Part shown: positions 6,707-59,091 of the stretch, in pieces
Position numbering within the stretch: position 1 is the first letter of the stretch
Layout of the letters: every line of letters starts with the position of its first letter
NCBI GenBank assembly: GCA_041654015.1
Contig: JBAZEI010000001.1
Location: 1-60,533 of the forward strand
Origin: Minisyncoccota bacterium
GTDB taxonomy: Bacteria > Patescibacteriota > Minisyncoccia > UBA6257
DNA: 60,533 bases
Direction: 5' to 3'
Made by a program: the position numbers and the translations under genes
The notes under the pieces: generated by a model
What the model was told of the DNA's origin: nothing
The model's input: only the letters and a program-made list of their open reading frames with translations
The model's database searches: none

Positions 6707-9700
6707 ATGTCTCCAAGAAAAAAATTTCATAATCATTTAAAAGAGGTTAAAAAAAGGACAGGTGAAATTGTCCCTTTTGAAAAGAAAAAAATAGAAGAAG
6801 CAATTTTCAAGGCCTTAACAGCTACGGATGAAGGCGGAAAAACTTTAGCCCGAGAATTATCAAATAAAGTTATTAAAATTCTTAATAGAAGATTTAAAAA
6901 AGAAGAAATTCCGTCGGTTGAAGAAATACAAGATATTGTTGAAGAAGTTTTAATTTTAGAGAATTTAGTTGAGACCTCAAAGGCCTATATTTTATACCGA
7001 GATCAAAGAAGAAAATTAAGAGAAAGCCAGATCGTTACTGAGGAATCAGTAAGTTTAGTGGATGAATACTTAGGAGTGAATGATTGGCAAGTAAAAGAGA
7101 ACAGCAATATGGCTTTCTCTCTTCAGGGGTTGAATCACTATGTATCTGCTTATGTCGCTAAAAAATATTGGTTAAGAAAAATTTACCCTAAAGAAATAAG
7201 AGAGGCAGTTGAAGCAGGGGATTTTCATATTCATAACTTGGATATTTTAGCCACTTATTGCTGTGGCTGGGATTTATATGATTTGCTTTTGCAGGGTTTT
7301 GGAGGTGTTTTTGGAAAAATTCAGTCAAAACCGCCAAAACATTTTGGTTCTGCTTTAGGGCAGGTAGTTAATTTTTTTTATACCCTTCAGGGCGAAGGCG
7401 CCGGAGCCCAAGCCTTTTCTAATTTTGACACTTTATTAGCCCCTTTTATTCGGTATGATAGTTTAAATTATCAGGACATAAAGCAATCTTTACAGGAGTT
7501 CCTTTTTAATTGTAATGTTCCGACACGGGTCGGCTTTCAATGTATTTCAGAGGATACAGAGATATTAAGCCCAACAGGGTGGAAAAATTATCAAGAAGTA
7601 GAAGAAGGAAATATTATTACAACGTTTAATTTAAAAACAAAAGCTTTAGAAAATAAAAAAGTTAGTTATGTATTTAAAAGAAAATATCATGGAATAATGT
7701 ATCGTTTACGCAATCGGATACAAGATCAGCTTATTTCCCCAAGGCATAAAGTAGTAAGGAGAAAATTTTATAGCAATGAATATGTTTTGGAACCTATAGA
7801 AGAAATAATGAAATTAAAATCTCCTTTTATTGTACCTATTACTGGAGAGAATATAAAATCGGATGTAAAACTAAGTGATGAGCAGATTAAACTAATGGCC
7901 TGGATTATCAGTGAAGGAACAATTGAAAGAAAGTCAAAATATCGTAGTTGCCACAGAGTTTCTATATATCAATCTAAAATTAAAAACAAGAAAAATTATA
8001 AAGAAATAGTTGGTTTATTAGAGCATTTTAAGTTTAAATATTCAGAATATAATACGGCCGCTTTGGGAGATGAAGTTTGCAAATTAAGATTAAACGCTGA
8101 GAGTTCTAAAGTTATTCATAAATGGTTTGGTTCTAAAGAAAATATTCATTTTATTCCGGAAGTTTTATTTAATTTAAGCAAGGAACAATCTAGATTATTT
8201 TTAAAAACTTATTTAAAAGGTGACGGTTTTGAGGAGTCTAAAATATCAATTACAGAATTGGAGCTATTAGAAGGGTTGGAGAGGATTATTGTGAATTCCG
8301 GATACGGATTCACTGTTCTTAAAAGAAAGCCTACTATAGGGAAAAAGGATATTTATGTTTTAAGAATTATCAGACATCAGGAAACCTATATTCAAAAAAT
8401 AGAAAAAGTTAATTACAAAGGAATAATTTGGTCAGTTCATACTCAAAACGAAACGGTTATCGCTCGACGCCGAGGAAAAGTTTTTATTACCGGCAACACT
8501 CCCTTTGAAAATATCACCTTAGATTTGAAAGTACCGGCTCATTTTAAAGATTTGCCGGTAATTATTGGCGGCCAACCGCAGAAAGAAACTTACAAAGATT
8601 TCCAAAAAGAGATGGATATCTTTAACCAGGCCTTATGTGAAATTTATACAGAGGGTGATTCTAGCGGAAGGGTTTTTACTTTTCCAATTCCCACTTACAA
8701 TATTACAAAAGATTTTGATTGGAGTAACCCTAGTTATGATGGTATTTGGAAAATGACTGCAAAGTATGGAATTCCATATTTTTCCAATTTCATTAATTCT
8801 GACTTAAGCCCTGAAGACGCACGAAGTATGTGTTTGGATGCTAAAGAAGAGATTTTGATTAAAGATTTTTCCGGTATAAAGAGACGTTTAATAGGAGATG
8901 TTGTGAAAGAGTATAAGCAGGGAAATTTTGACAGAGAGGGGTGGAGCAAATGTAAAGGGGATAATGATTTAAAGGCACTATCTTTAAATTATGAGACTGG
9001 GAAAGTAGAATGGACAAATGTAAAGAATTTTTTGCGGGTGTTGGATAATCAGATGGTAGAGATCGTATCTGAAGAAGGGAAATCTATTAGAGCTTCTCAG
9101 AAACACCTTGTTCCAGTTTTAACTCAAGGAGGATTGGTTAATAGATTCGCTCAAGATATTAAAGAAGGGGACTATCTTTTAACTTATAGAAAAGGTGATA
9201 TTTTGAATAATAATTACCAAAGGATAGGAGATTTAATCCTTAATGAAGACTTAGCGAAATTTTTAGGCTATTTTACTGCTGACGGCAATTATCTTTTTGA
9301 AAATAGAAAAAATCTAAGAACCTTTGGTTACCCCAGAGGACTACAATTTACTTTTAATGCAAAAACTAAAGCTAATTTAGAGAAGATAAAAGCATTGATT
9401 AAAAATATTTTTTCTCTAAAAACGAAAGAAAAGAAAGACCCACGCTATAATTCTTACTATCTTTACATCTATAATTCTCAATTAGCTAGGAAATTATTTC
9501 AGGCAGGTTTTAAAAAATATGGTTGTTTGCCAGATATTTTGTTCAACTCGCCCCAGGCGGTTATTGAAGCATTTTTAGAGTTTCATTTTAAAGGAGATGG
9601 TTATGCAAAAAGGCAAGAGATTCATATTAATGATCCGAAATTAGCCAGGGATTTAGCAATTTTGTATTCTTTAATAGGAAAATCGGTGACTTACAGAGAA

Positions 9701-10987
9701 AGAAAAAGAAGTCAGGTGCTTTATATTCAACATAACAAATCGCATCTAAGAGCTGATGAGATTTTGAGTAATCCTTTGATTTTTGAAAAAATGCCAGGAT
9801 TTCTAGCAAAATCGACTTATTTGGTACCAGGGTTATATAAATCTCGAATGGTAGGTTGTGATACTTTAGTAAAATATAAAGCAGATACTTTAGAATCCTT
9901 GAAAATTAAGAACAGCGATTATTACATTACTAGAGTGAAACAAGTGAAAAGAAAGTTTTTGAAAAAGCCTCAGTTTTTTTATGATTTGGAATTGGAAAGG
10001 AACCATTTATTTATTCATTCTCTCGGAGCTATTACTCATAATTGTTGCCGGCTTCGCTTGGATAACAGGGAACTTTATAAACGAGGTGGCGGATTATTTG
10101 GAGCCAATCCTTTAACCGGGAGTATCGGGGTGGTAACAATAAATATGCCTCGTTTGGGATATTTATCAAAAACCAAAAAGGAGTTTTTTGAAAGATTAGC
10201 TCAGGAAATGGAATTGGCAAAAGAAAGCTTGGAGATAAAAAGAAAAATTTTAGAAAGTTGGACAGAAAAAGGGCTTTATCCTTATGCGAAACATTATTTG
10301 AGTAATGTTAAAAAGATGAGGGGGACTTATTGGGGAAATCACTTTTCTACTATTGGTTTGATTGGGGTGAATGAGTGTCTCTTAAATTTTTTGGGGATTG
10401 ATATCGGCAATAAAAAAGGCATTGCTTTTGCTTCTGAAATTCTTGATTTTATGCGGGAGAAACTTATTAGTTATCAAGAAAAAACAGGAAATTTATATAA
10501 TTTAGAAGCAACGCCGGCTGAAGGAACTTCTTACCGGCTTGCTCTTATGGACAAGAAAAAATATCCAGATATTATTACTGCCGGCGAAAAAGAACCTTAT
10601 TATACTAATTCCACCCAATTACCAGTGAATTATACAGATGATTTATTTGAGGCCTTAAAGCTTCAAGATGGGCTTCAAAAAAAATATACAGGTGGCACGG
10701 TGATTCATGCTTTTTTGGGAGAAACAATCTCCGATTCAGAAGCAGTTAAATCCTTGATTAAACTTGTTTTTGAAAAATTCCACCTGCCTTATTTCACTTT
10801 AACGCCGACTTTTTCTGTTTGTCCGACCCATGGTTATCTAACCGGGGAACATTTTATTTGTCCTAAATGCACTATTGAACAGCCTTGCGAGGTTTATTCT
10901 CGAATTGTCGGTTACTTGAGACCAGTTCAGCAGTGGCATCGGGGAAAACAAGAGGAATTTCGTCAGAGAAAAACCTTCAAAATTTGA
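6707..10987 (+). CDS. nrdD: Anaerobic (class III) ribonucleoside-triphosphate reductase interrupted by two inteins
   Basis: ATP-cone N-terminus, RSM/CCRLRLD active-site block, C-terminal Zn ribbon CPTHG..CPKC and glycyl-radical motif YSRIVGYLRPV. 1426 aa in total, 703 aa after removing the two inteins. Confidence 0.9.
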   Translation: MSPRKKFHNHLKEVKKRTGEIVPFEKKKIEEAIFKALTATDEGGKTLARELSNKVIKILNRRFKKEEIPSVEEIQDIVEEVLILENLVETSKAYILYRDQRRKLRESQIVTEESVSLVDEYLGVNDWQVKENSNMAFSLQGLNHYVSAYVAKKYWLRKIYPKEIREAVEAGDFHIHNLDILATYCCGWDLYDLLLQGFGGVFGKIQSKPPKHFGSALGQVVNFFYTLQGEGAGAQAFSNFDTLLAPFIRYDSLNYQDIKQSLQEFLFNCNVPTRVGFQCISEDTEILSPTGWKNYQEVEEGNIITTFNLKTKALENKKVSYVFKRKYHGIMYRLRNRIQDQLISPRHKVVRRKFYSNEYVLEPIEEIMKLKSPFIVPITGENIKSDVKLSDEQIKLMAWIISEGTIERKSKYRSCHRVSIYQSKIKNKKNYKEIVGLLEHFKFKYSEYNTAALGDEVCKLRLNAESSKVIHKWFGSKENIHFIPEVLFNLSKEQSRLFLKTYLKGDGFEESKISITELELLEGLERIIVNSGYGFTVLKRKPTIGKKDIYVLRIIRHQETYIQKIEKVNYKGIIWSVHTQNETVIARRRGKVFITGNTPFENITLDLKVPAHFKDLPVIIGGQPQKETYKDFQKEMDIFNQALCEIYTEGDSSGRVFTFPIPTYNITKDFDWSNPSYDGIWKMTAKYGIPYFSNFINSDLSPEDARSMCLDAKEEILIKDFSGIKRRLIGDVVKEYKQGNFDREGWSKCKGDNDLKALSLNYETGKVEWTNVKNFLRVLDNQMVEIVSEEGKSIRASQKHLVPVLTQGGLVNRFAQDIKEGDYLLTYRKGDILNNNYQRIGDLILNEDLAKFLGYFTADGNYLFENRKNLRTFGYPRGLQFTFNAKTKANLEKIKALIKNIFSLKTKEKKDPRYNSYYLYIYNSQLARKLFQAGFKKYGCLPDILFNSPQAVIEAFLEFHFKGDGYAKRQEIHINDPKLARDLAILYSLIGKSVTYRERKRSQVLYIQHNKSHLRADEILSNPLIFEKMPGFLAKSTYLVPGLYKSRMVGCDTLVKYKADTLESLKIKNSDYYITRVKQVKRKFLKKPQFFYDLELERNHLFIHSLGAITHNCCRLRLDNRELYKRGGGLFGANPLTGSIGVVTINMPRLGYLSKTKKEFFERLAQEMELAKESLEIKRKILESWTEKGLYPYAKHYLSNVKKMRGTYWGNHFSTIGLIGVNECLLNFLGIDIGNKKGIAFASEILDFMREKLISYQEKTGNLYNLEATPAEGTSYRLALMDKKKYPDIITAGEKEPYYTNSTQLPVNYTDDLFEALKLQDGLQKKYTGGTVIHAFLGETISDSEAVKSLIKLVFEKFHLPYFTLTPTFSVCPTHGYLTGEHFICPKCTIEQPCEVYSRIVGYLRPVQQWHRGKQEEFRQRKTFKI
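7541..8497 (+). mobile_element. Intein 1 in NrdD (319 codons) with LAGLIDADG homing-endonuclease domain
   Basis: Starts CISEDTEIL directly after extein ..TRVGFQ. Ends ..VFITGN followed by +1 Thr (TPFENITLD). Internal LAGLIDADG-type motifs LMAWIISEGTI and YLKGDGFEE. Confidence 0.85.
8831..10042 (+). mobile_element. Intein 2 in NrdD (404 codons) with LAGLIDADG homing-endonuclease domain
   Basis: Starts CLDAKEEIL after extein ..DARSM. Ends ..GAITHN followed by +1 Cys of CCRLRLD. Internal motifs LAKFLGYFTADGNY and FHFKGDGYAK. Confidence 0.85.
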
Positions 10988-11770: not shown

Positions 11771-13198
11771 ATGGCGCTCTCTCCTTCCAGAGTTTTCCGT
11801 CAATGTGGGGCGTCTTTTTTAATAGCCGTAATTTTATCGCATTATTTCTCTTTCTCTTTTGTCTTGAGTTTGATTATTTATTCGGTAATTTATATTTTAT
11901 TTTATGGTCGGCAACTATCTTCTTTGTTGCGAAAAGAGCGGTCTATTATTTTGTTTTTGATCCTGTTGAGTTTTTCTTTAGGGCAATTTCGTTACTTCTC
12001 TTTTGTAGATGAGTTAAATAAATCAGCTGTTAAAGAAGAAAAACAAGTGGAGATAGAAGCTTCTACTGTAAGGGAGCCGATTTTAAAAACCAATTATCAA
12101 AGAATAATAATTCCCAATATAGTTATTTATACTGAAAGGTTTCCGGTTTATCAATACGGAGATACATTAAAAATTAAAGGGAAAATAGAACCATTAAAAG
12201 GATTTCGCTTTTATAATTCCACCATTGTTTCTGGCAAAATGAGTTATCCAAAAATAGAGTTAATTTCTTCTTCTAAATTTTCCTTTCAGAAAGCCGCCAT
12301 TTCTTTTAAAAACAAGACAACTCATTTGCTTCAAAAAATTATTCCTGAACCCCAGATGAGCCTCTTAAACAGTATCATGTTTGGCGGCAAGCATAATTTG
12401 ACAGATTCTTTGGAAAAAGAGATCCGAAAGTCGGGATTGTCCCATATTATTGTTGTTTCAGGTTTGCATTTATCCATTATTACTCAAATGCTTTCCAGCC
12501 TCTTGGCTGTTTTTTGCTTGGGGAATTTATTCAATTTTATTTTTTCCGGTTTATTTTTGTTAGTATTTTCCTTTATGGTTGGTTTTACTCCCTCAATTAC
12601 TCGGTCGGCAATAATGGCTTTTTTGCTGGTTTTATCCCGTTTTAATTTCCGCCTTTATAATTCTCTTAACGCTTTATTTCTCGCAGCGCTAATAATGGTT
12701 TGGTTTAATCCATTAATGCTCTTTTTAGATTTAGGTTTTCAACTTTCTTTTTTGGCGACAGCGGGCATATTATTGTTTTATCCTTTGTGGAGCCAGTCTT
12801 CTTTTTGGCAGAGAGATTTTTTGAATAATCGGGGAGCGCAAATTGTTAAGCAAACAGTGATTTCCTGTTTTTCGGCAATGGTTTTAGTTGTTCCTTGGGT
12901 GATATTTAAAACTCAGAGCATTTCTTTAGTAGCTCCTTTAACCAACATTTTGGTAGTTCCCTTGATTTCTTTAATAATAGGGGGAGGGTTTATTACTGCT
13001 CTTTGCGCGTTTATCATTTATCCTTTAGGATTATTTTTTGGGTTTTGGCTTAATTTGATAATGACTTATTTGTTGAAAGTAATTTCTTATTGCGCTAACT
13101 TACCCTTCGCCGAGATTTATATTTCTTCGAGTCTGCGTTGGCTGGTTGTTCCTTTCTATCTTCTAATTTTTCTTTATTTTCGTAAAAAGAGTCATTAG
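11771..13198 (+). CDS. comEC: ComEC/Rec2 DNA-uptake channel, membrane (competence) domain
   Basis: 475 aa polytopic membrane protein containing GLSHIIVVSGLHLSII. Confidence 0.75.
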   Translation: MALSPSRVFRQCGASFLIAVILSHYFSFSFVLSLIIYSVIYILFYGRQLSSLLRKERSIILFLILLSFSLGQFRYFSFVDELNKSAVKEEKQVEIEASTVREPILKTNYQRIIIPNIVIYTERFPVYQYGDTLKIKGKIEPLKGFRFYNSTIVSGKMSYPKIELISSSKFSFQKAAISFKNKTTHLLQKIIPEPQMSLLNSIMFGGKHNLTDSLEKEIRKSGLSHIIVVSGLHLSIITQMLSSLLAVFCLGNLFNFIFSGLFLLVFSFMVGFTPSITRSAIMAFLLVLSRFNFRLYNSLNALFLAALIMVWFNPLMLFLDLGFQLSFLATAGILLFYPLWSQSSFWQRDFLNNRGAQIVKQTVISCFSAMVLVVPWVIFKTQSISLVAPLTNILVVPLISLIIGGGFITALCAFIIYPLGLFFGFWLNLIMTYLLKVISYCANLPFAEIYISSSLRWLVVPFYLLIFLYFRKKSH

Positions 13199-13203
13199 AC
13201 CAG

Positions 13204-14052
13204 ATGCATCTTATCTCGTTGATTTATATGAAGAAACCTTTTTTATATATCTTATTGTTTCTTGTTTCTGCCAATATTTTTACTTTTTGGATTATTTTTG
13301 ATTATTTTTATCTTGATAAAGGGGAAGTAAGCTTTTTGGATATTGGCCAAGGAGATGCTGAACTCATTCAAACACGATCAGGTAATATTTTGATAGATGC
13401 CGGACCTGATATGAGCATTATTTCTGCTTTAGATTCATCTCTGCCTTTTTTTGACCAGACAATTGATTTATTTATTCTTTCTCATCCTAATAAAGACCAT
13501 TTTAATGGACTGTTTGAAGTCTTAGAGCGATACGAAGTAAGGGCGGTAATGCTTAATAATATATTTTATACTGACTCCCAATATCAAAAACTTCTTCAAA
13601 AATTGGTAAAAAAAGACATTCTAATTATTCAAGGAGTAAGAGGGGTAAAATTAACTTTTAAAGATGATAAGTTATTTGTGATTTATCCAGAGGCAATGGT
13701 TTCTTCAAGAGAAGACCCTAATAAGTTTAGTTTAGTAGTTTCTTTGGATTTGGGAGAAAATTATTTTCTTTTTTTGGGTGATATTAGCGCCAGTCAGGAA
13801 AAAGAAATCTTACCCTTATTGCCGGAAAAAAATAATAAATCAAGGATTTTAAAAGTGGCTCATCATGGTTCTCGTTATTCTTCTTCTTCGGAGTTTTTGG
13901 AAAAATTTAAGCCCCATTTTGCAGTAATTGAGGTTGGCAATAATAGTTATAGCCATCCTCATCTTGATACTCTCAGCCGTTTAACACAGATAGGGGCTGA
14001 AATTTTTCGCACAGATTTAGATGGAACAATTAGGTTTAAAGAGAAAAAGTGA
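13204..14052 (+). CDS. ComEC-type metallo-beta-lactamase domain protein (separate ORF)
   Basis: DIGQGDAELIQ, HPNKDHFNG, VAHHGS. N-terminal TM helix. The start could be the internal Met at 13231. Confidence 0.75.
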   Translation: MHLISLIYMKKPFLYILLFLVSANIFTFWIIFDYFYLDKGEVSFLDIGQGDAELIQTRSGNILIDAGPDMSIISALDSSLPFFDQTIDLFILSHPNKDHFNGLFEVLERYEVRAVMLNNIFYTDSQYQKLLQKLVKKDILIIQGVRGVKLTFKDDKLFVIYPEAMVSSREDPNKFSLVVSLDLGENYFLFLGDISASQEKEILPLLPEKNNKSRILKVAHHGSRYSSSSEFLEKFKPHFAVIEVGNNSYSHPHLDTLSRLTQIGAEIFRTDLDGTIRFKEKK

Positions 14053-23996: not shown

Positions 23997-24007
23997 CAAA
24001 CACTTGA

Positions 24008-24143
24008 CCCCCACACCATAACGAGCACTAAGTGCTTTGCGCTAAACCCCCACACCATATAGTCTTTAGATATATAGAAGTTAGTCTAAATTTATTTGGT
24101 GTGCGGGGTAAAATACGAAGTATGTGCTCATTTGGTGTGGGGG
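24008..24143. mobile_element. Non-coding TIR element (CCCCCACACC...GGTGTGGGGG), 4-bp TSD TTGA, inserted in a -35 box
   Basis: TTGA at 24004..24007 and 24144..24147. The uninterrupted paralogous site at 19579 shows the empty target. Contains a second nested copy. Confidence 0.85.
24047..24108. mobile_element. Nested 62-nt TIR element (CCCCCACACC...GGTGTGCGGGG), 4-bp TSD TAAA
   Basis: TAAA at 24043..24046 and 24109..24112. The right TIR has one extra C. Confidence 0.7.
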
Positions 24144-24171
24144 TTGACATTCATTTTAGATTTGCTATACT
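24144..24171 (+). promoter_or_regulatory. Sigma-70-like promoter TTGACA-16 nt-TATACT (regenerated by the TSD)
   Basis: Identical to 19579..19606. Confidence 0.6.
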
Positions 24172-24177
24172 ACTTCT

Positions 24178-24258
24178 GGTGTTATTTCTAAGCCGCAAGG
24201 CCTATAAATAACACCATTGCTGTCGTTTTTGGCTTGCCAAAGGCGGCAGCATTTTTTT
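24178..24258 (+). ncRNA. Candidate ~80-nt small RNA, copy 2
   Basis: Same two hairpins and U-tract as 19613..19693. The differences cluster in the first ~10 nt. Confidence 0.45.
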
Positions 24259-24416
24259 ATTATTAATAATTATTAATGAGGATAATTAATGAGGTCGGAC
24301 CTCGTTAATTATTTTAGAAAAAGTTAATTTATATATTTTCTTATTTTTTCATATATTTTCTTTTTTCAATTGTTTCTGGTATGATATGAACGCGGAAAAT
24401 AAATTGTTTTAACTAA

Positions 24417-31671: not shown

Positions 31672-31730
31672 TAAAGCAACATTTAATCATTTAACAATGA
31701 AGCAATACAACAATGTAATTTGGGGGTTGA

Positions 31731-31834
31731 CCCCCACACCAAACGTTTTTAGCATAAATTTCTATATAAATATAGATGAAACTTAGAAGTAATTGTTGGT
31801 CTACATATCTACAAAGTTCGTTATGGTGTGGGGG
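31731..31834. mobile_element. 104-nt non-coding TIR element (CCCCCACACC...GGTGTGGGGG), 4-bp TSD TTGA, inserted in the tuf promoter -35 box
   Basis: TTGA at 31727..31730 and 31835..31838. Subterminal CCAAACG / CGTTATGG and an internal AACTTAGAA are shared with the element at 57764..57895. Confidence 0.8.
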
Positions 31835-31863
31835 TTGACAATAAATTAATTATGCCTTAATAT
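31835..31863 (+). promoter_or_regulatory. Sigma-70-like promoter TTGACA-17 nt-TAATAT upstream of tuf
   Basis: ttgacaataaattaattatgccttaatat. Confidence 0.55.
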
Positions 31864-55306: not shown

Positions 55307-57231
55307 CAATATTCGTAACTTCGTCATTATTGCCCATATTGATCATGGAAAGTCTACTTTGGCTGATAGGTTTTTGGAATTGACAAAGACGATTTCGAAA
55401 AATAAATTAAGTCCCCAATACTTAGACAGAATGGATTTAGAAAAAGAACACGGCATTACTATTAAGATGCACCCGGTTCAAATGCTCTATCAGGCAAAAA
55501 CCCTAAATCCTAAATCCGAAATTCTAAACACCTGCCCGCTTCGCTTTGCGAAGCAAAGCAGGCGGGAATCCCAAATCCAAAATTCTAAATCCCAGAAAAA
55601 TAATTTAGAATTTAGCGCTTCGGATTTAGAGTTTTCAAATTCAGAATATATTTTGAACTTGATAGATACTCCGGGGCATGTTGATTTTACTTATGAAGTT
55701 TCTCGCGCCTTGGCTGCAGTTGAAGGAGCCGTGCTTTTGGTAGACGGAACTCAGGGTATCCAGGCGCAAACTCTTTCTAATCTTATGTTAGCTCAAAAAC
55801 AGGGTCTTAAAATTATCGGCGCTATTAATAAAATAGATTTAGAAATTCCTGATTTAGAACAAAAAAGAAAAGAGTTGGCTGATTTGTTAAAGGTTGATAA
55901 AAAAGAGATAGTTCTTTTATCGGCAAAAACAGGAGAAAATGTGGATCTTCTGCTTCAAAAAATTGTAATTGAAATTCCCAGTCCAAAAATTAAAAATGAG
56001 CTTCCTTTTCGGGCTTTGGTATTTGACTCTCATTATGATGATTATAAAGGGATTATTGCTTATTTAAGGGTTATTGAAGGAGAAGTCGCCAAAGGAGAAA
56101 AAATTAATTTTGTTATCAGCGGCGCAAAAGGAAGCGCTGTTAATTTGGGTTATTTTGCTCCGGAATTAAAGCCAAAAGATAGATTAAAATCAGGGGAAAT
56201 TGGCTGGATTGCAACAGGGTTAAAAGATTTAAATTTAGTTCGAGTCGGAGACACAATAGCCAAATCATTAAACATAGAACCTTTGCCGGGCTATAAAGAA
56301 CCAAAACCAGTGGTTTTTGCCGGTTTTTATTTAGCCAAAGGCAAAGCAGATTCAGGTTTAAGTAAAGGCGATAAGGATTTTGAGCATTTTCGTCATTCTT
56401 TATATCAATTAAAATTGAACGATTCGGCTTTATATTTTACTCCAGAAAGCTCTGAAGCTTTGGGCCGGGGTTATCGTTTAGGGTTTTTAGGGATGCTTCA
56501 TTTAGAAATTACTCAGGAAAGATTAAAAAAAGAATACGGTTTGGATTTAATCATTACTCAACCAACAGTGCCTTATAAAGTTTTACTCAAAGGCAACAAA
56601 GAAAAAATTATTACCAATCCCAGCGAATGGCCTTCCCTCAATGAAATTATTGGCTATGAAGAACCTTGGGTAAATATGGAGATTATTACAATGCCCCAGT
56701 ATTTATCCAATATAATGAAGCTAATAAATGGCTCGCGGGGCGAAAATATCAATACTTTTACTTTTGCCGAAAGATTGATTATAAAATGCGAGATACCTTT
56801 GGAGGAGGTAATTAAAGATTTTTACGATAATTTAAAATCTGTTTCTTCTGGTTACGCCTCTTTGAGCTACGAAATCTCGGGATATAAGCCGACAGAATTG
56901 GAAAAGTTAGAAGTAGTTTTGGCGGGAAAACAATTTGAAAGTTTGTCGCGGATAGTTTTTAGAGATAAAATAGAAAAGGAAGCGAGAAGAGGTTTTGCCT
57001 CGCCAAAATTACGCTATCCCGATACAGATAAAAGGGATGGGTAGGATTATTGCCCGGGAAACAGTGCCTGCTTTGAAAAAAGATGTTACGGGTTATCTTT
57101 ATGGCGGGGACAGAACCAGAAAAATGAAACTTTGGAAAAAACAGGCAAAAGGGAAGAAAAAACTTTTAGAAGAAGCAGATTTAGAGATTCCTTCAGAAGT
57201 TTTCTTAAAAATATTCCCTTCTTCCCGTTAA
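55299..57231 (+). CDS. lepA: Elongation factor 4 (LepA), with an in-frame insertion in the G domain and an apparent +1 frameshift near the 3' end
   Basis: IRNFVIIAHIDHGKSTL, NLIDTPGHVDF, INKIDL. The conserved C-terminus LPRQNYAIPIQ..IIARETV..YGGD.TRK.KL..KQ..GKK continues in the next frame (track ORF 56995..57231). The frames switch at the T4 run 56993..56996. Confidence 0.88.
55497..55646 (+). repeat. ~150-nt palindromic element inserted in frame in lepA
   Basis: Encodes KTLNPKSEILNTCPLRFAKQSRRESQIQNSKSQKNNLEFSASDLEFSNSE, where E. coli LepA has about 5 residues. Outer inverted repeat ctaaatccgaaattctaaa (55510..55528) / tttagaattt..cggatttag (55604..55629). GC core with GCTTCGC..GCGAAGC hairpin at 55531..55566. 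Confidence 0.8.
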
Positions 57232-57253: not shown

Positions 57254-57652
57254 ATGAAAAAATTTTTATTAATTTTAATCAGCATTGTTATCGTTTTTGC
57301 GCTTGCCCAGCGGATTCAAGACGATTGGCAAAAATATAAACTCCTAACTGAAGAAGTCAGCGATTTAGAATCAAAAAAAGAAAATTTGCTTAAAGAGCGG
57401 GAAAGATTAGAGCAGTTGTTAGAGCAGGGAAGCCAGAAAGATTTATTAGAGAGAGAGGCGCGTTCAATGTTAGGTTTCAAAAAAGAAGGAGAAGAGGTAA
57501 TTTTGGTAATTCCGCCGACAAATAATATAGAATCAGCCACTGATAGCGTCTCTCTTGATTTATCAGTTTCCTCAAGCACTCAGGACAGCTTCCTTTCAAA
57601 TATTTTTGGGATTTGGTATAATTTTTTGGAGAAATTAGGGATTAGAAAATAA
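57254..57652 (+). CDS. Septum formation initiator (FtsB/DivIC family)
   Basis: N-terminal TM helix, coiled coil, and LEREARSMLGFKKEGEEVI. Confidence 0.65.
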   Translation: MKKFLLILISIVIVFALAQRIQDDWQKYKLLTEEVSDLESKKENLLKERERLEQLLEQGSQKDLLEREARSMLGFKKEGEEVILVIPPTNNIESATDSVSLDLSVSSSTQDSFLSNIFGIWYNFLEKLGIRK

Positions 57653-57763
57653 AATTAGCGAGATTAGTATAGTGGTAGTATATCACCTTCCCAAGCCCCC
57701 ACACCAAAGAAGGATATCAATTTCGCGGACATCGTATAGTGGCTAGTACGTAACCTTCCCAAG

Positions 57764-57895
57764 TCCCCACACCAAACGAGTATTACTTGCGAGATTAGTA
57801 TAGTGGTAGTATATCACCTTCCCAAGGTGAGGGCGCCGGTTCGATTCCGGTATCTCGCTCAACTTAGAATTTAAAATATCGTTATGGTGTGGGGA
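57764..57895. mobile_element. TIR element E2 (TCCCCACACC...GGTGTGGGGA), TSD CAAG, whose cargo is the intact tRNA-Gly 'C'
   Basis: Arms 57764..57788 and 57860..57895. Shares CCAAACG / CGTTATGG and AACTTAGAA with the tuf-promoter element. Confidence 0.75.
57789..57859 (+). tRNA. tRNA-Gly (anticodon CCC), intact copy 'C'
   Basis: Hand-folded. Acceptor GCGAGAT/ATCTCGC, D arm GTAT-AGTGGTA-GTAT, anticodon arm TCACC-UUCCCAA-GGTGA, 4-nt variable loop, T arm GCCGG-TTCGATT-CCGGT. No encoded CCA. Confidence 0.88.
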
Positions 57896-58002
57896 CAAGG
57901 TTAAAGCGTGGGTTCGATTCCCATTGTCCGCTCAAAATATAAGTAATCCTTCTTATGGTGTGGGGGCAAGGTGAGGGCGCCGGTTCGATTCCGGTATCTC
58001 GC

Positions 58003-59091
58003 TCAGATAATTTTTCCGCCCCCTAAACATTTATCTTTTTGATAAAAAACAGCGAATTGGCCCGGGCAGGGGGCAAAAACCGGTTTTGAAAAAACAATTT
58101 TTAATTTTCTTTTTTCCGGAATTATAATAGCTGATGCAGGTTTTTGCTGGTAGCGAATACTCACTTGGGCTTTAAAAGGTTTTGATAGTTTTTTTCCAGA
58201 AATAAAGTGATGAGGAAAAACAAAGATTTCTTTTTTAAAGAGATCTTTTTTATTTTTACTCACTAAAAGAGCGTTTTTCTTTTTGTCAAAGCCGACAACA
58301 AAATAAGGGCCGCCGGAAAGTTTGATCCCTTTTCTTTGGCCAATGGTAAAAAAATGCAATCCTTGGTGTTGGGATAAAATATTTTTTTGAGTGTCAATTA
58401 TTAAACCTTGTTTTTTACCAATTTTTTGTTCCAAAAAAGGGCAAAGAGACTGGCCGGCAATAAAACAAAAATCCTTACTTTCTTCTATTTTGCTAAAGAA
58501 TTTCAGCCCCTGTTTTTTTGCTATTTGATAAATTTCTTTTTTAGAGTAATCACCGAGAGGAAAAATGATATGTTTGAGCCATTTTTGAGGCAAAAAACAG
58601 AGATTATAAGTTTGATCTTTATTTTTATCTTCGGCTTTTAATAACTCATACTGCTTTGTTTTAGAATTAAATTTCAGTCTTGCATAGTGGCCAGTCGCAA
58701 TATATTCAATCTTATGTTTTTTTGCCCAAGCGATTAATTGTTTAAACTTGAAATTAGGATTGCAAATAACGCAAGGATTGGGGGTTCTTAAATTTTTCCA
58801 TTCGTTAATAAAATACCCAACAACTTGTTTTTTAAAATCTTTTTTCGCGTCCACAATATGATGAGGGATACCTAACTTTTTACAAACCTTAGCTGCTACT
58901 TCTAGAGATTGTTTTTTTACAAGACGGGCATTTGCTTTTGAAAAATTGGTTTTATCCTCCCAAATAGGCAATTCTAAAGAAAGGCCGATCGGCTGCCAGC
59001 CTTCTTGTTTTAATAGTATTAAAGCGGCCGAGGAATCTACTCCTCCGGACATACCAACAACAATTTTTTGGCCCTTAATATTTTTTGACAT
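58003..59091 (-). CDS. mnmA: tRNA-specific 2-thiouridylase MnmA
   Basis: PP-loop VGMSGGVDSS, PNPCVICN, ATGHYAR. Confidence 0.9.
   Translation of the reverse strand: MSKNIKGQKIVVGMSGGVDSSAALILLKQEGWQPIGLSLELPIWEDKTNFSKANARLVKKQSLEVAAKVCKKLGIPHHIVDAKKDFKKQVVGYFINEWKNLRTPNPCVICNPNFKFKQLIAWAKKHKIEYIATGHYARLKFNSKTKQYELLKAEDKNKDQTYNLCFLPQKWLKHIIFPLGDYSKKEIYQIAKKQGLKFFSKIEESKDFCFIAGQSLCPFLEQKIGKKQGLIIDTQKNILSQHQGLHFFTIGQRKGIKLSGGPYFVVGFDKKKNALLVSKNKKDLFKKEIFVFPHHFISGKKLSKPFKAQVSIRYQQKPASAIIIPEKRKLKIVFSKPVFAPCPGQFAVFYQKDKCLGGGKII

Follow-up and report, generated by a model that had tools for sequence, protein, structure and literature searches.

How does one tRNA gene come to lie within a second tRNA gene, which itself lies within a third? 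This question is raised by positions 57658-58003 of a contig of a Minisyncoccota bacterium (JBAZEI010000001.1), whose 60,533 nucleotides (nt) analysed are called here the window. At this locus a complete tRNA-Gly(CCC) gene is enclosed by the halves of two others. The original prediction had seen two successive DNA-level insertions of an element like a MITE (miniature inverted-repeat transposable element) with a tRNA-Gly(CCC) as cargo, and had kept an RNA-level origin as the alternative. The best explanation, which we hold to be probable, is that a native tRNA-Gly(CCC) gene was invaded twice at the DNA level by small non-autonomous elements with terminal inverted repeats (TIRs) and a tRNA cargo. 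This degree of confidence is a joint one, given for the observed and the presumed parts of the explanation together.

The nested tRNA-Gly(CCC) locus

Direct reading of positions 57658-58003, together with scripts, gave the order A5', left part of element E1, B5', left part of element E2, intact C, right part of E2, B3', right part of E1 and A3', and the three-deep layout that had been predicted proved exact to the base. A5' (57658-57695, plus strand) comprises nt 1-38 of the native tRNA-Gly(CCC) gene A and ends with the left copy of a CAAG (57692-57695). It is followed by the outer element E1 (57696-57966, no strand assigned), which has the TIRs CCCCCACACC/GGTGTGGGGG, imperfectly extended to about 20 bp (..AaAGAAGGAT), lies between the CAAG at 57692-57695 and another at 57967-57970, and carries as cargo a second tRNA-Gly(CCC), called B. 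E1 measures 271 bp as found and 135 bp once E2 and its duplicated CAAG are subtracted. The 5' part of the cargo (B5', 57725-57763, plus strand) also ends with a CAAG (57760-57763), and behind it stands the inner element E2 (57764-57895, no strand assigned), 132 bp long, with the TIRs TCCCCACACC/GGTGTGGGGA, the CAAG copies at 57760-57763 and 57896-57899 and the tRNA C as cargo. C (57789-57859, plus strand) is the sole intact tRNA-Gly(CCC) of the locus according to ARAGORN, Rfam (tRNA, 64.2 bits) and an identity test. The layout is closed by the 3' parts of the two interrupted genes, both on the plus strand, B3' at 57900-57932 and A3' at 57971-58003, the last base of which overlaps the stop codon of mnmA on the minus strand.

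When A5' and A3' are rejoined they are identical to C over 71 of 71 positions, and the rejoined B5' and B3' give a 72-nt tRNA-Gly(CCC) with all its stems paired in ARAGORN, both as had been claimed. The insertion point of E1 in A and of E2 in B is, again as predicted, the same CAAG (nt 36-39), duplicated on each side. In the raw sequence ARAGORN and Rfam call C alone, the intron mode of ARAGORN recognised neither A nor B in the raw locus, and Rfam returned tRNAs only, whether run on the locus with E<=1 or on the entire window at the gathering threshold. The complete 346-nt region is predicted to fold into nested cloverleaf-like helices (-144 kcal/mol, z = -8.7).

The nest is real and not an artefact of assembly. 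DivIC, which is encoded just upstream, is present on contigs of six other samples, and the identical layout, up to the repeated A3' part, was found in two independent assemblies of other samples, JGI contig 3300014205 and ENA k141 contig ERZ27247358. The k of 141 settles the order of the nest, because every internal repeat is at most 38 nt long. The short-k Logan contigs end exactly within the repeated parts of A and C, as expected.

Empty sites and a one-layer relative

The divIC neighbourhoods of relatives were gathered via DivIC homology (L numbers are our labels for related loci). In the closest relative, GCA_028719125.1 (L036), whose MnmA and LepA are 88% and 89% identical in amino acids (aa) to those of the window, the 75-nt gap between divIC and mnmA contains one uninterrupted A-type tRNA-Gly(CCC), 69/71 identical to A. 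It reads ...CCCAAGGTGA..., with one CAAG only and without TIR, so that the uninterrupted A locus that was to be looked for in relatives does exist. At the same place three farther relatives have an intact gene of a different allele, namely L037 and L038 (MnmA 75-76% identical to the window) and L039 (LepA 79%, without mnmA there).

L014, another relative at genus level, came from the pattern scan described below and is more distant still (MnmA 69%, DivIC 49%). Downstream of its divIC we found A'5', an E1 with an intact B', and A'3', that is, the one-layer state. E1 with E2 removed and the L014 element are identical at 131 of 134 positions (98%), the non-coding spacers included, and the outer halves of window and L014 are 93-95% identical, while the surrounding DNA is unalignable. 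Therefore, E1 has moved recently between lineages and has come to lie at the same position of the same gene. E1 is furthermore 86% identical to the element of L020, and the B-type cargo is intact in L014 and L024.

An empty site was also found for a copy without cargo, the one at 31.7 kb. In the sister genome (L040, around 7207-7240) this site reads ggggTTGAcaataaattaattatgccttaatatgg; the TTGA is single there and the element is absent. For the MITE at 24.0 kb no empty site is readable, as the sister contig breaks off at this site, 31 nt upstream of rsmI. The empty sites with a single CAAG or TTGA, plus the one-layer relative, thus show that the tRNA nest and the cargo-less 31.7-kb copy both arose by insertion of DNA, with 4 bp duplicated. 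The two successive insertions of the original prediction are supported by these sites, by the one-layer intermediate and by the nests found throughout the family.

Cargo-less copies within the window

The 9-mer CCCCACACC occurs 13 times in the window with at most one mismatch, against 2.7 +/- 1.6 times in shuffled sequences, none of 100 shuffles reaching 13, and its exact copies all form properly nested inverted pairs, at 24.0, 31.7 and 57.7 kb. The 10-bp TIR CCCCCACACC/GGTGTGGGGG is present on all five copies of the window and on 23 related loci. One cargo-less copy, of 104 bp (31731-31834), lies in the -35 box ahead of tuf with TTGA at 31727-31730 and 31835-31838. Another, of 136 bp (24008-24143), sits in the -35 box before rsmI, between TTGA copies at 24004-24007 and 24144-24147, and contains a nested inner copy of 62 bp (24047-24108) with TAAA on both sides; no strand is assigned to any of the three. 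Both TTGA-flanked copies are placed within TTGACA boxes. The claim that the elements at 24.0 and 31.7 kb belong to the same TIR family with a 4-bp target site duplication (TSD) holds, the duplicated letters being TTGA there, and E2 shares its subterminal sequence with the 31.7-kb copy. The clean 4-bp TSDs of the window are, in all, CAAG twice, TTGA twice and TAAA once. The family is thus shown to be defined by the 10-bp TIR (CCCCCACACC) and a 4-bp target duplication.

The elements range from 62 to 162 bp, are filled by a tRNA or an AT-rich spacer, and are too small for a transposase gene. Neither the window nor 233 kb of related loci contain TIR pairs 0.4-4 kb apart that enclose an open reading frame (ORF), and hence the autonomous copy that the original prediction suggested looking for was not seen there. 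Transposase matches of Pfam were absent among the 19 window ORFs scanned for domains (0-24 kb and 51.9 kb). IS1380-like elements, which have CC ends and duplications of 4-5 bp, may be a lead for the assignment to a family.

Three further observations concern these copies. The right TIR of the inner copy at 24.0 kb has a 1-nt insertion (GGTGTGCGGGG). Directly 3' of the 24.0-kb MITE (24144-24260) there is a promoter-like site, TTGACA-17-TATACT, and after it, ahead of rsmI, the hairpins GGTGTTATTT..AAATAACACC and GCTGTCG..CGGCAGC plus a T-run. Rfam gives no match in this region, which might encode a small RNA or act as an attenuator or a short leader. Finally, the fusA-tuf spacer of the sister genome (L040:7245-7320) contains a tandem repeat of ctcaaagcttaaaa units, a repeat that the window does not have.

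The element family in other genomes

Metagenome contigs and GTDB genomes were scanned with the pattern TIR - N55-85 - GGTTCRAWTCC - N25-55 - TIR. After chance matches had been discarded, 23 further cargo-bearing loci were retained from around 16 independent lineages, a lineage being counted as independent by a different tRNA, site or element sequence. The rejected candidates were L011 and L016 (GC content 0.6 and no tRNA), L026, L031 and L034 (CACCCACACC microsatellite-like repeats in Saprospiraceae) and L035 (a chance match).

The cargo-bearing elements at the scanned loci are 113-162 bp long, each with a complete tRNA, and the cargos are of the kinds Arg-GCG, Asn-GTT, Ala-CGC, Thr-CGT, Gly-CCC, Gly-GCC, Glu-TTC, Ile-GAT, Gln-CTG, Val-GAC and Met-CAT. 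In all 23 loci the element is bordered by the 5' and/or 3' part of a tRNA gene of the same orientation, and this tRNA is of the cognate kind wherever typing was possible. In Patescibacteria, such nests of cognate tRNA genes concern twelve tRNA species or more. The insertions are in the anticodon loop for Gly, Thr, Ala, Glu, Met and Val, in the T-loop for Arg, Gly-GCC and Gln, in the D-loop for L021 (TSD TTTA) and in the 5' strand of the anticodon stem for Ile (L019). Clean TSDs outside the window are CAAG (L014), TAAA (L013) and TTTA (L021 and the MITE of L018). The named hosts are Patescibacteria, Parcubacteria and Moraniibacteriota, plus one metagenome-assembled genome (MAG) labelled Gammaproteobacteria, and the GC content of the hosts goes from 0.30 to 0.64. 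No cargo-bearing copies were found in viral contigs, and none of the loci found is an intergenic cargo-bearing copy, whereas cargo-less copies do occur intergenically. The isoacceptor-specific behaviour that had been proposed is shown as a pattern in the family and not as a mechanism of targeting.

A second multi-layer nest, of tRNA-Thr(CGT), was found in a Patescibacteria MAG (JAMCXE010000031.1, L029:287-535). Its order is A5', TIR, B5', TIR, complete C, TIR and B3', the outer right arm and A3' being deleted. Here the innermost C is close to A5' and the middle B is different, so that the alternation of layers seen in the window recurs.

Functional and decayed tRNA genes

The Gly(CCC) cargos show compensatory changes in 12 of 23 pairs and no broken pair, a signature by which the cargo tRNAs are read as functional. 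The outer genes range from perfect, as in the window, to ruined. In the Ala nests the outer gene has TTTA or TTCA in place of the anticodon CGCA, and in the T-loop nests it has CACG, CTTG or CCCG for TTCG on one side and TAAA or TGAA on the other. Most of a half is gone in L012, L018, L020, L027 and the outer layer of L029, and residues of the anticodon or T-loop are missing from the outer genes of L008, L017, L022, L023, L025 and L027. From these losses many outer genes can be judged dead.

The decayed outer genes of L009, L013, L021, L024, L027 and L033 also have extra GC-rich palindromic insertions in their D or T loops (for example CCCTGCCTGCCGGCAGGCAGG), which resemble a second, unrelated family of small repeats accumulating in tRNA pseudogenes. 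Another side observation concerns L008 and L032, which are orthologous T-loop nests of tRNA-Arg(GCG) in two organisms. Between them the outer gene changes from GCGCTTG/CAAGCGC to GCGCTTA/TAAGCGC, and the cargo from GTCCTTG/CAAGGAC to GTCCTTA/TAAGGAC, that is, by the same compensatory change, which suggests gene conversion between the layers.

Regarding transcription, a sigma-70-type promoter is predicted upstream of the outermost gene (57595-57622, plus strand, TTCAAA-16-TGgTATAAT). Apart from a weaker match at 57627-57655, this is the only promoter-like site on the plus strand able to drive the whole nest, and an identical ttggtataat stands upstream of the tRNA in relatives. There are no plus-strand promoter-like sites within the nest (57658-57789).

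Junction tetranucleotides and covariation of the TIR ends

The 4-bp TSD holds for the window, and the tetranucleotides next to the TIRs are clean duplications in recent insertions. However, this part of the original prediction does not extend to many of the older nests (L008, L012, L015, L017, L019, L022, L023, L025, L027, L029, L032 and L033), in which the two TIR-adjacent tetranucleotides are not identical. Irrespective of the native sequence, they appear to converge on TTYA...CRAG at anticodon sites and on the mirror form CNNG...TRAA at TTCG sites, and the Ala family has the intermediates CGCA, then CGAG, then CAAG at the junction. A simple decay of TSDs fails as an explanation, because the rest of the outer gene is still identical to the cargo at 49 of 50 positions in L008. 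We considered mutated TSDs, carry-over of donor flanks, helix extension, K-turn motifs and cleavage tetranucleotides of the IS200/IS605 type, and none of them fits all cases. Furthermore, the outermost pair of the TIRs covaries, being C/G in most copies and T/A in four (E2 of the window, L009, L018 and L028).

How the nest may have been built and kept

In the first event E1, carrying B, inserted into the CAAG (nt 36-39) of native A, and in the second event E2, with a cargo identical to A, inserted into the same CAAG of B, leaving C alone intact. Lacking a promoter of its own and lying, like all the cargos, in the orientation of the interrupted gene, the cargo would be transcribed by read-through from the promoter of that gene. 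Ordinary tRNA end-processing would then release the cargo tRNA. Since A5' equals C5', the paired TIRs probably hold the look-alike halves of each layer together, letting the innermost tRNA fold. Such a role may also explain the covariation of the outermost TIR pair.

Genomes of the Candidate Phyla Radiation (CPR) usually have one gene per tRNA. An element that hits a single-copy essential tRNA gene would thus kill the cell, save where it brings along a functioning copy of the same tRNA in the same orientation, and selection would leave only the self-compensating insertions. The resident gene being dead, the element could no longer be deleted, which would be a form of addiction. Cargo-less copies would persist only in intergenic or non-essential DNA, and in promoters the duplication of TTGA would rebuild the -35 box. 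Most likely, therefore, we are dealing with promoter-less tRNA cassettes that survive where the cargo replaces the gene that was destroyed.

Several points weigh against this explanation. No transposase and no autonomous copy was found in the window or in the 233 kb of related loci. Many nests are without a clean junction duplication and their tetranucleotides appear to converge, and the covariation of the TIR pair hints at a constraint on a hairpin or RNA helix. Selection alone explains poorly that no cargo-bearing copy is intergenic while cargo-less ones are, unless the enzyme favours tRNA loops or the cassettes spread by recombination. C is identical to the interrupted A, whereas the A of the sister genome differs at 2 positions, and such an identity (100%) requires that the cargo was taken from another strain of the species or that gene conversion took place. 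Lastly, the expression and processing of the nest are steps that we infer from the sequence.

As a more tentative idea, which we would not put above a possibility, the elements may be selfish 'tRNA gene replacement cassettes' that find the cognate gene through homology to their own cargo, by recombination across the tRNA halves or by cargo-guided insertion. This guarded estimate covers the homology search, the undeletability and the continual horizontal replacement of tRNA alleles that the elements would drive in CPR bacteria. A trace of rival alleles invading one another might then be seen in the alternation of layers, the innermost matching the outermost exactly in the window and nearly so in L029, with a deviating layer between them.

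Alternative explanations

The alternative that survives best is spread by homologous recombination, a 'homing without an endonuclease' in which a rare single transposition is followed by the transfer of a cassette made of tRNA 5' half, cargo element and tRNA 3' half, with the conserved halves or longer flanks as homology arms. We consider it conceivable although doubtful, and it would complement the double insertion and not exclude it. In this way one could account for the cognate targets, for the shared orientation and for the fact that each element family keeps to one site. The window, L014, L020 and L024 all have E1 at CAAG, five loci have the Ala elements at nt 34-37, and two have the Arg elements in the T-loop. 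Moreover, the outer halves of L014 are A-type (93-95%) though the closer relatives L037-L039 carry a different native allele, a ComEC DNA-uptake protein is encoded in the window, and outer gene and cargo show the same compensatory change between L008 and L032. Nevertheless, the homology arms would be just 33-38 bp, and window and L014 diverge within 7-14 nt of the junctions. E1 and E2 differ and yet share the CAAG site, so that two original transpositions at one site would be needed, and from the clean TSDs and the intergenic copies it is clear that genuine transposition takes place in this genome.

It is less probable, and in our opinion unlikely, that the insertions are actively targeted, the transposase, the cargo tRNA or its gene guiding the element into the loops of cognate tRNA genes. 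The tetranucleotides and positions vary with the type of tRNA (CAAG, TAAA, TTTA, CGCA, TTCG), a guide made of the cargo would hit the element's own cargo too, and no protein or guide for such targeting was found. Nor is the enzyme tRNA-specific, because cargo-less copies with the same TIRs enter promoters. What speaks for targeting is that all the cargo-bearing copies found are in tRNA genes, cognate where typable, with none intergenic, and that two different elements struck the same CAAG of two different tRNA-Gly(CCC) sequences. In addition, most insertion points are D, anticodon or T loops, which are centres of short inverted repeats, with L019 (Ile) as the exception.

The RNA-level alternative of the original prediction takes the inserts as introns, or the halves as split genes like those of Nanoarchaeum, with A and B matured by cleavage and ligation. 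The nested cloverleaf-like fold of the 346 nt, the covarying outermost TIR pair (C/G or T/A), the still perfect outer halves of the window and the fall of position 37/38 within the duplicated CAAG would all agree with it. However, we regard it as very improbable and it was not upheld. The host is a bacterium, with genes for MurJ, LepA, DivIC, MnmA, FtsZ and ComEC, a tRNA-Gly with U73 and relatives named Paceibacterota, and the empty sites and TSDs are those of a DNA insertion. With the arms fully paired the junction has 7-8 nt against 2-3 nt, and not two 3-nt bulges 4 bp apart, and the minimum free energy fold has no bulge-helix-bulge (BHB) motif. In an alternative register drawn by hand (UUCC with GGGG) the 3' bulge is plausible, but 5 nt too many are left at the 5' site. 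Rfam gives no intron match, and neither the splicing endonuclease EndA nor the ligase RtcB was seen among the 19 window ORFs scanned. Furthermore, older outer genes have lost the anticodon, T54-U55-C56 or a half, and their splicing would yield no usable tRNA.

An assembly artefact, or a local duplication without mobile elements, has practically no chance: A5'/C5' and C3'/A3' are indeed exact repeats at which several short-k contigs break, but the two independent assemblies agree on the layout, one of them with a k above every repeat, over 20 unrelated contigs show this architecture with other tRNAs, and a tandem duplication cannot yield a nested order.

Host and neighbouring genes

The host is a Candidatus Paceibacterota (CPR) bacterium and not an archaeon. 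The genes around the nest are murJ, lepA, divIC, mnmA and iscU, and elsewhere in the window, whose GC content is 35%, there are ftsA/Z, nrdD, comEC, aminoacyl-tRNA synthetases and the str/S10 ribosomal operons. The homologues are named Candidatus Paceibacterota or Pacebacteria in the source databases, and the discriminator base of the tRNA-Gly of the window is U73, which we take to be the bacterial form.

The lepA gene looks frameshifted near its 3' end (56990-57231). A 581-aa ORF stops at 57044, the C-terminus of LepA resumes in another frame at 56995-57231, and relatives have 598-615 aa in a single frame; the break is either a sequencing error or a genuine frameshift. The LepA of the window also has a low-complexity insertion at around aa 60-125. 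The anaerobic ribonucleotide reductase NrdD (6707-10987) holds an intein (Intein_splicing match at aa 752-1112), and the IscU/NifU gene adjoining mnmA in L038 (L038:3048-3402) has an intein with a LAGLIDADG domain. In L039 (L039:1893-3393) the intact tRNA-Gly(CCC) is followed by a helix-turn-helix regulator, a BsaWI-like restriction enzyme and a methyltransferase in place of mnmA, that is, a restriction-modification system inserted beside the tRNA gene. A ComEC-type competence protein (Competence and metallo-beta-lactamase domains) is split over two adjacent ORFs (11771-14052). ComEC bears on DNA uptake and is therefore relevant to a spread of the cassettes by recombination.

Implications

If the explanation by two insertions is right, a minimal transposon could settle in the most conserved, essential genes of a streamlined genome and leave the host alive, by means of a spare copy. 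An addiction-like persistence is predicted, as the element would carry the presumed sole working copy of that tRNA in the cell. The elements would also be a concrete vehicle for the horizontal replacement of tRNA genes in CPR bacteria, E1 being 98% identical between genomes where MnmA is only 69% identical. The strict conservation of the 10-bp end across hosts of 30-64% GC implies a conserved transposase, still to be discovered, that is active on substrates of 130 bp. These elements are also worth taking into account in annotation, since standard tRNA finders report the innermost gene only, and the outer halves might be taken for split tRNA genes or for genes with introns, leading to wrong ideas on tRNA splicing in bacteria.

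Comparison with known systems

No published description of such tRNA-carrying and tRNA-nesting elements was found in the literature, a query with the TIR sequence included, in agreement with the original prediction, which knew of none. Therefore, a complete spare gene within a TIR element of 130 bp, repeated into Russian-doll nests of tRNA genes, is apparently undescribed. The biology of these elements is unusual in that they reside obligately in the cognate tRNA gene, replace it, nest and spread horizontally.

Integrase-borne islands and prophages integrate in tRNA genes and restore the displaced 3' part, and thus share with our elements a self-compensating insertion into a tRNA gene. These islands are large, use tyrosine or serine recombinases and have an att core identical to part of the tRNA, which stays continuous, whereas here a TIR element of 130 bp brings a whole new gene and leaves both old halves. 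A tRNA element with a tyrosine integrase is ruled out, as there is no ORF, the duplicated segment is just 4 bp and both old halves remain.

With the archaeal tRNA introns and split tRNAs (BHB; Nanoarchaeum, Caldivirga) the locus shares halves with complementary GC-rich arms and a break near position 37/38. It differs from them in the bacterial host, the lack of a BHB, the TSDs in DNA, the empty sites, the decaying outer genes and the complete tRNA inside. A BHB tRNA intron is rejected because the joined exons give no functional tRNA in many members, and split genes of the Nanoarchaeum type because the halves are nested and contiguous behind one promoter-like site and an unsplit gene is present in a relative.

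IStrons, group I introns and inteins are mobile elements made harmless by splicing (PMC4227781). They also neutralise the damage of their own insertion in an essential gene, but here this would be done with a spare gene and without splicing, Rfam giving no ribozyme. A group I intron, for which a catalytic core (P3-P9) and more than about 200 nt would be expected, is excluded, as Rfam at E<=1 finds tRNA only and 71 of the 132 bp of E2 are tRNA.

The Dada elements are DNA transposons with TIRs and TSDs at fixed positions in genes of tRNAs or small nuclear RNAs (Kojima & Jurka 2013, PMC3706591), and thus insert as TIR/TSD elements inside tRNA genes as those of the window do. However, they are eukaryotic and autonomous, with a DDE transposase, have TSDs of 6-7 bp and multicopy targets, and bring no replacement gene (PMC3706591). 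Membership in Dada is ruled out by the lack of an ORF, the 4-bp TSD and the bacterial host.

The closest likeness in structure is to MITEs and mobile insertion cassettes, with which our elements have in common the short length, perfect TIRs, a TSD of fixed length, several copies per genome, empty sites, nesting and no coding capacity. As all the defining features that could be tested are present, the elements are structurally MITEs or mobile insertion cassettes. Unlike in these, the passenger is a complete tRNA gene, and its copies were found solely inside a co-oriented tRNA gene, cognate where typable, where they replace the gene that the insertion destroyed.

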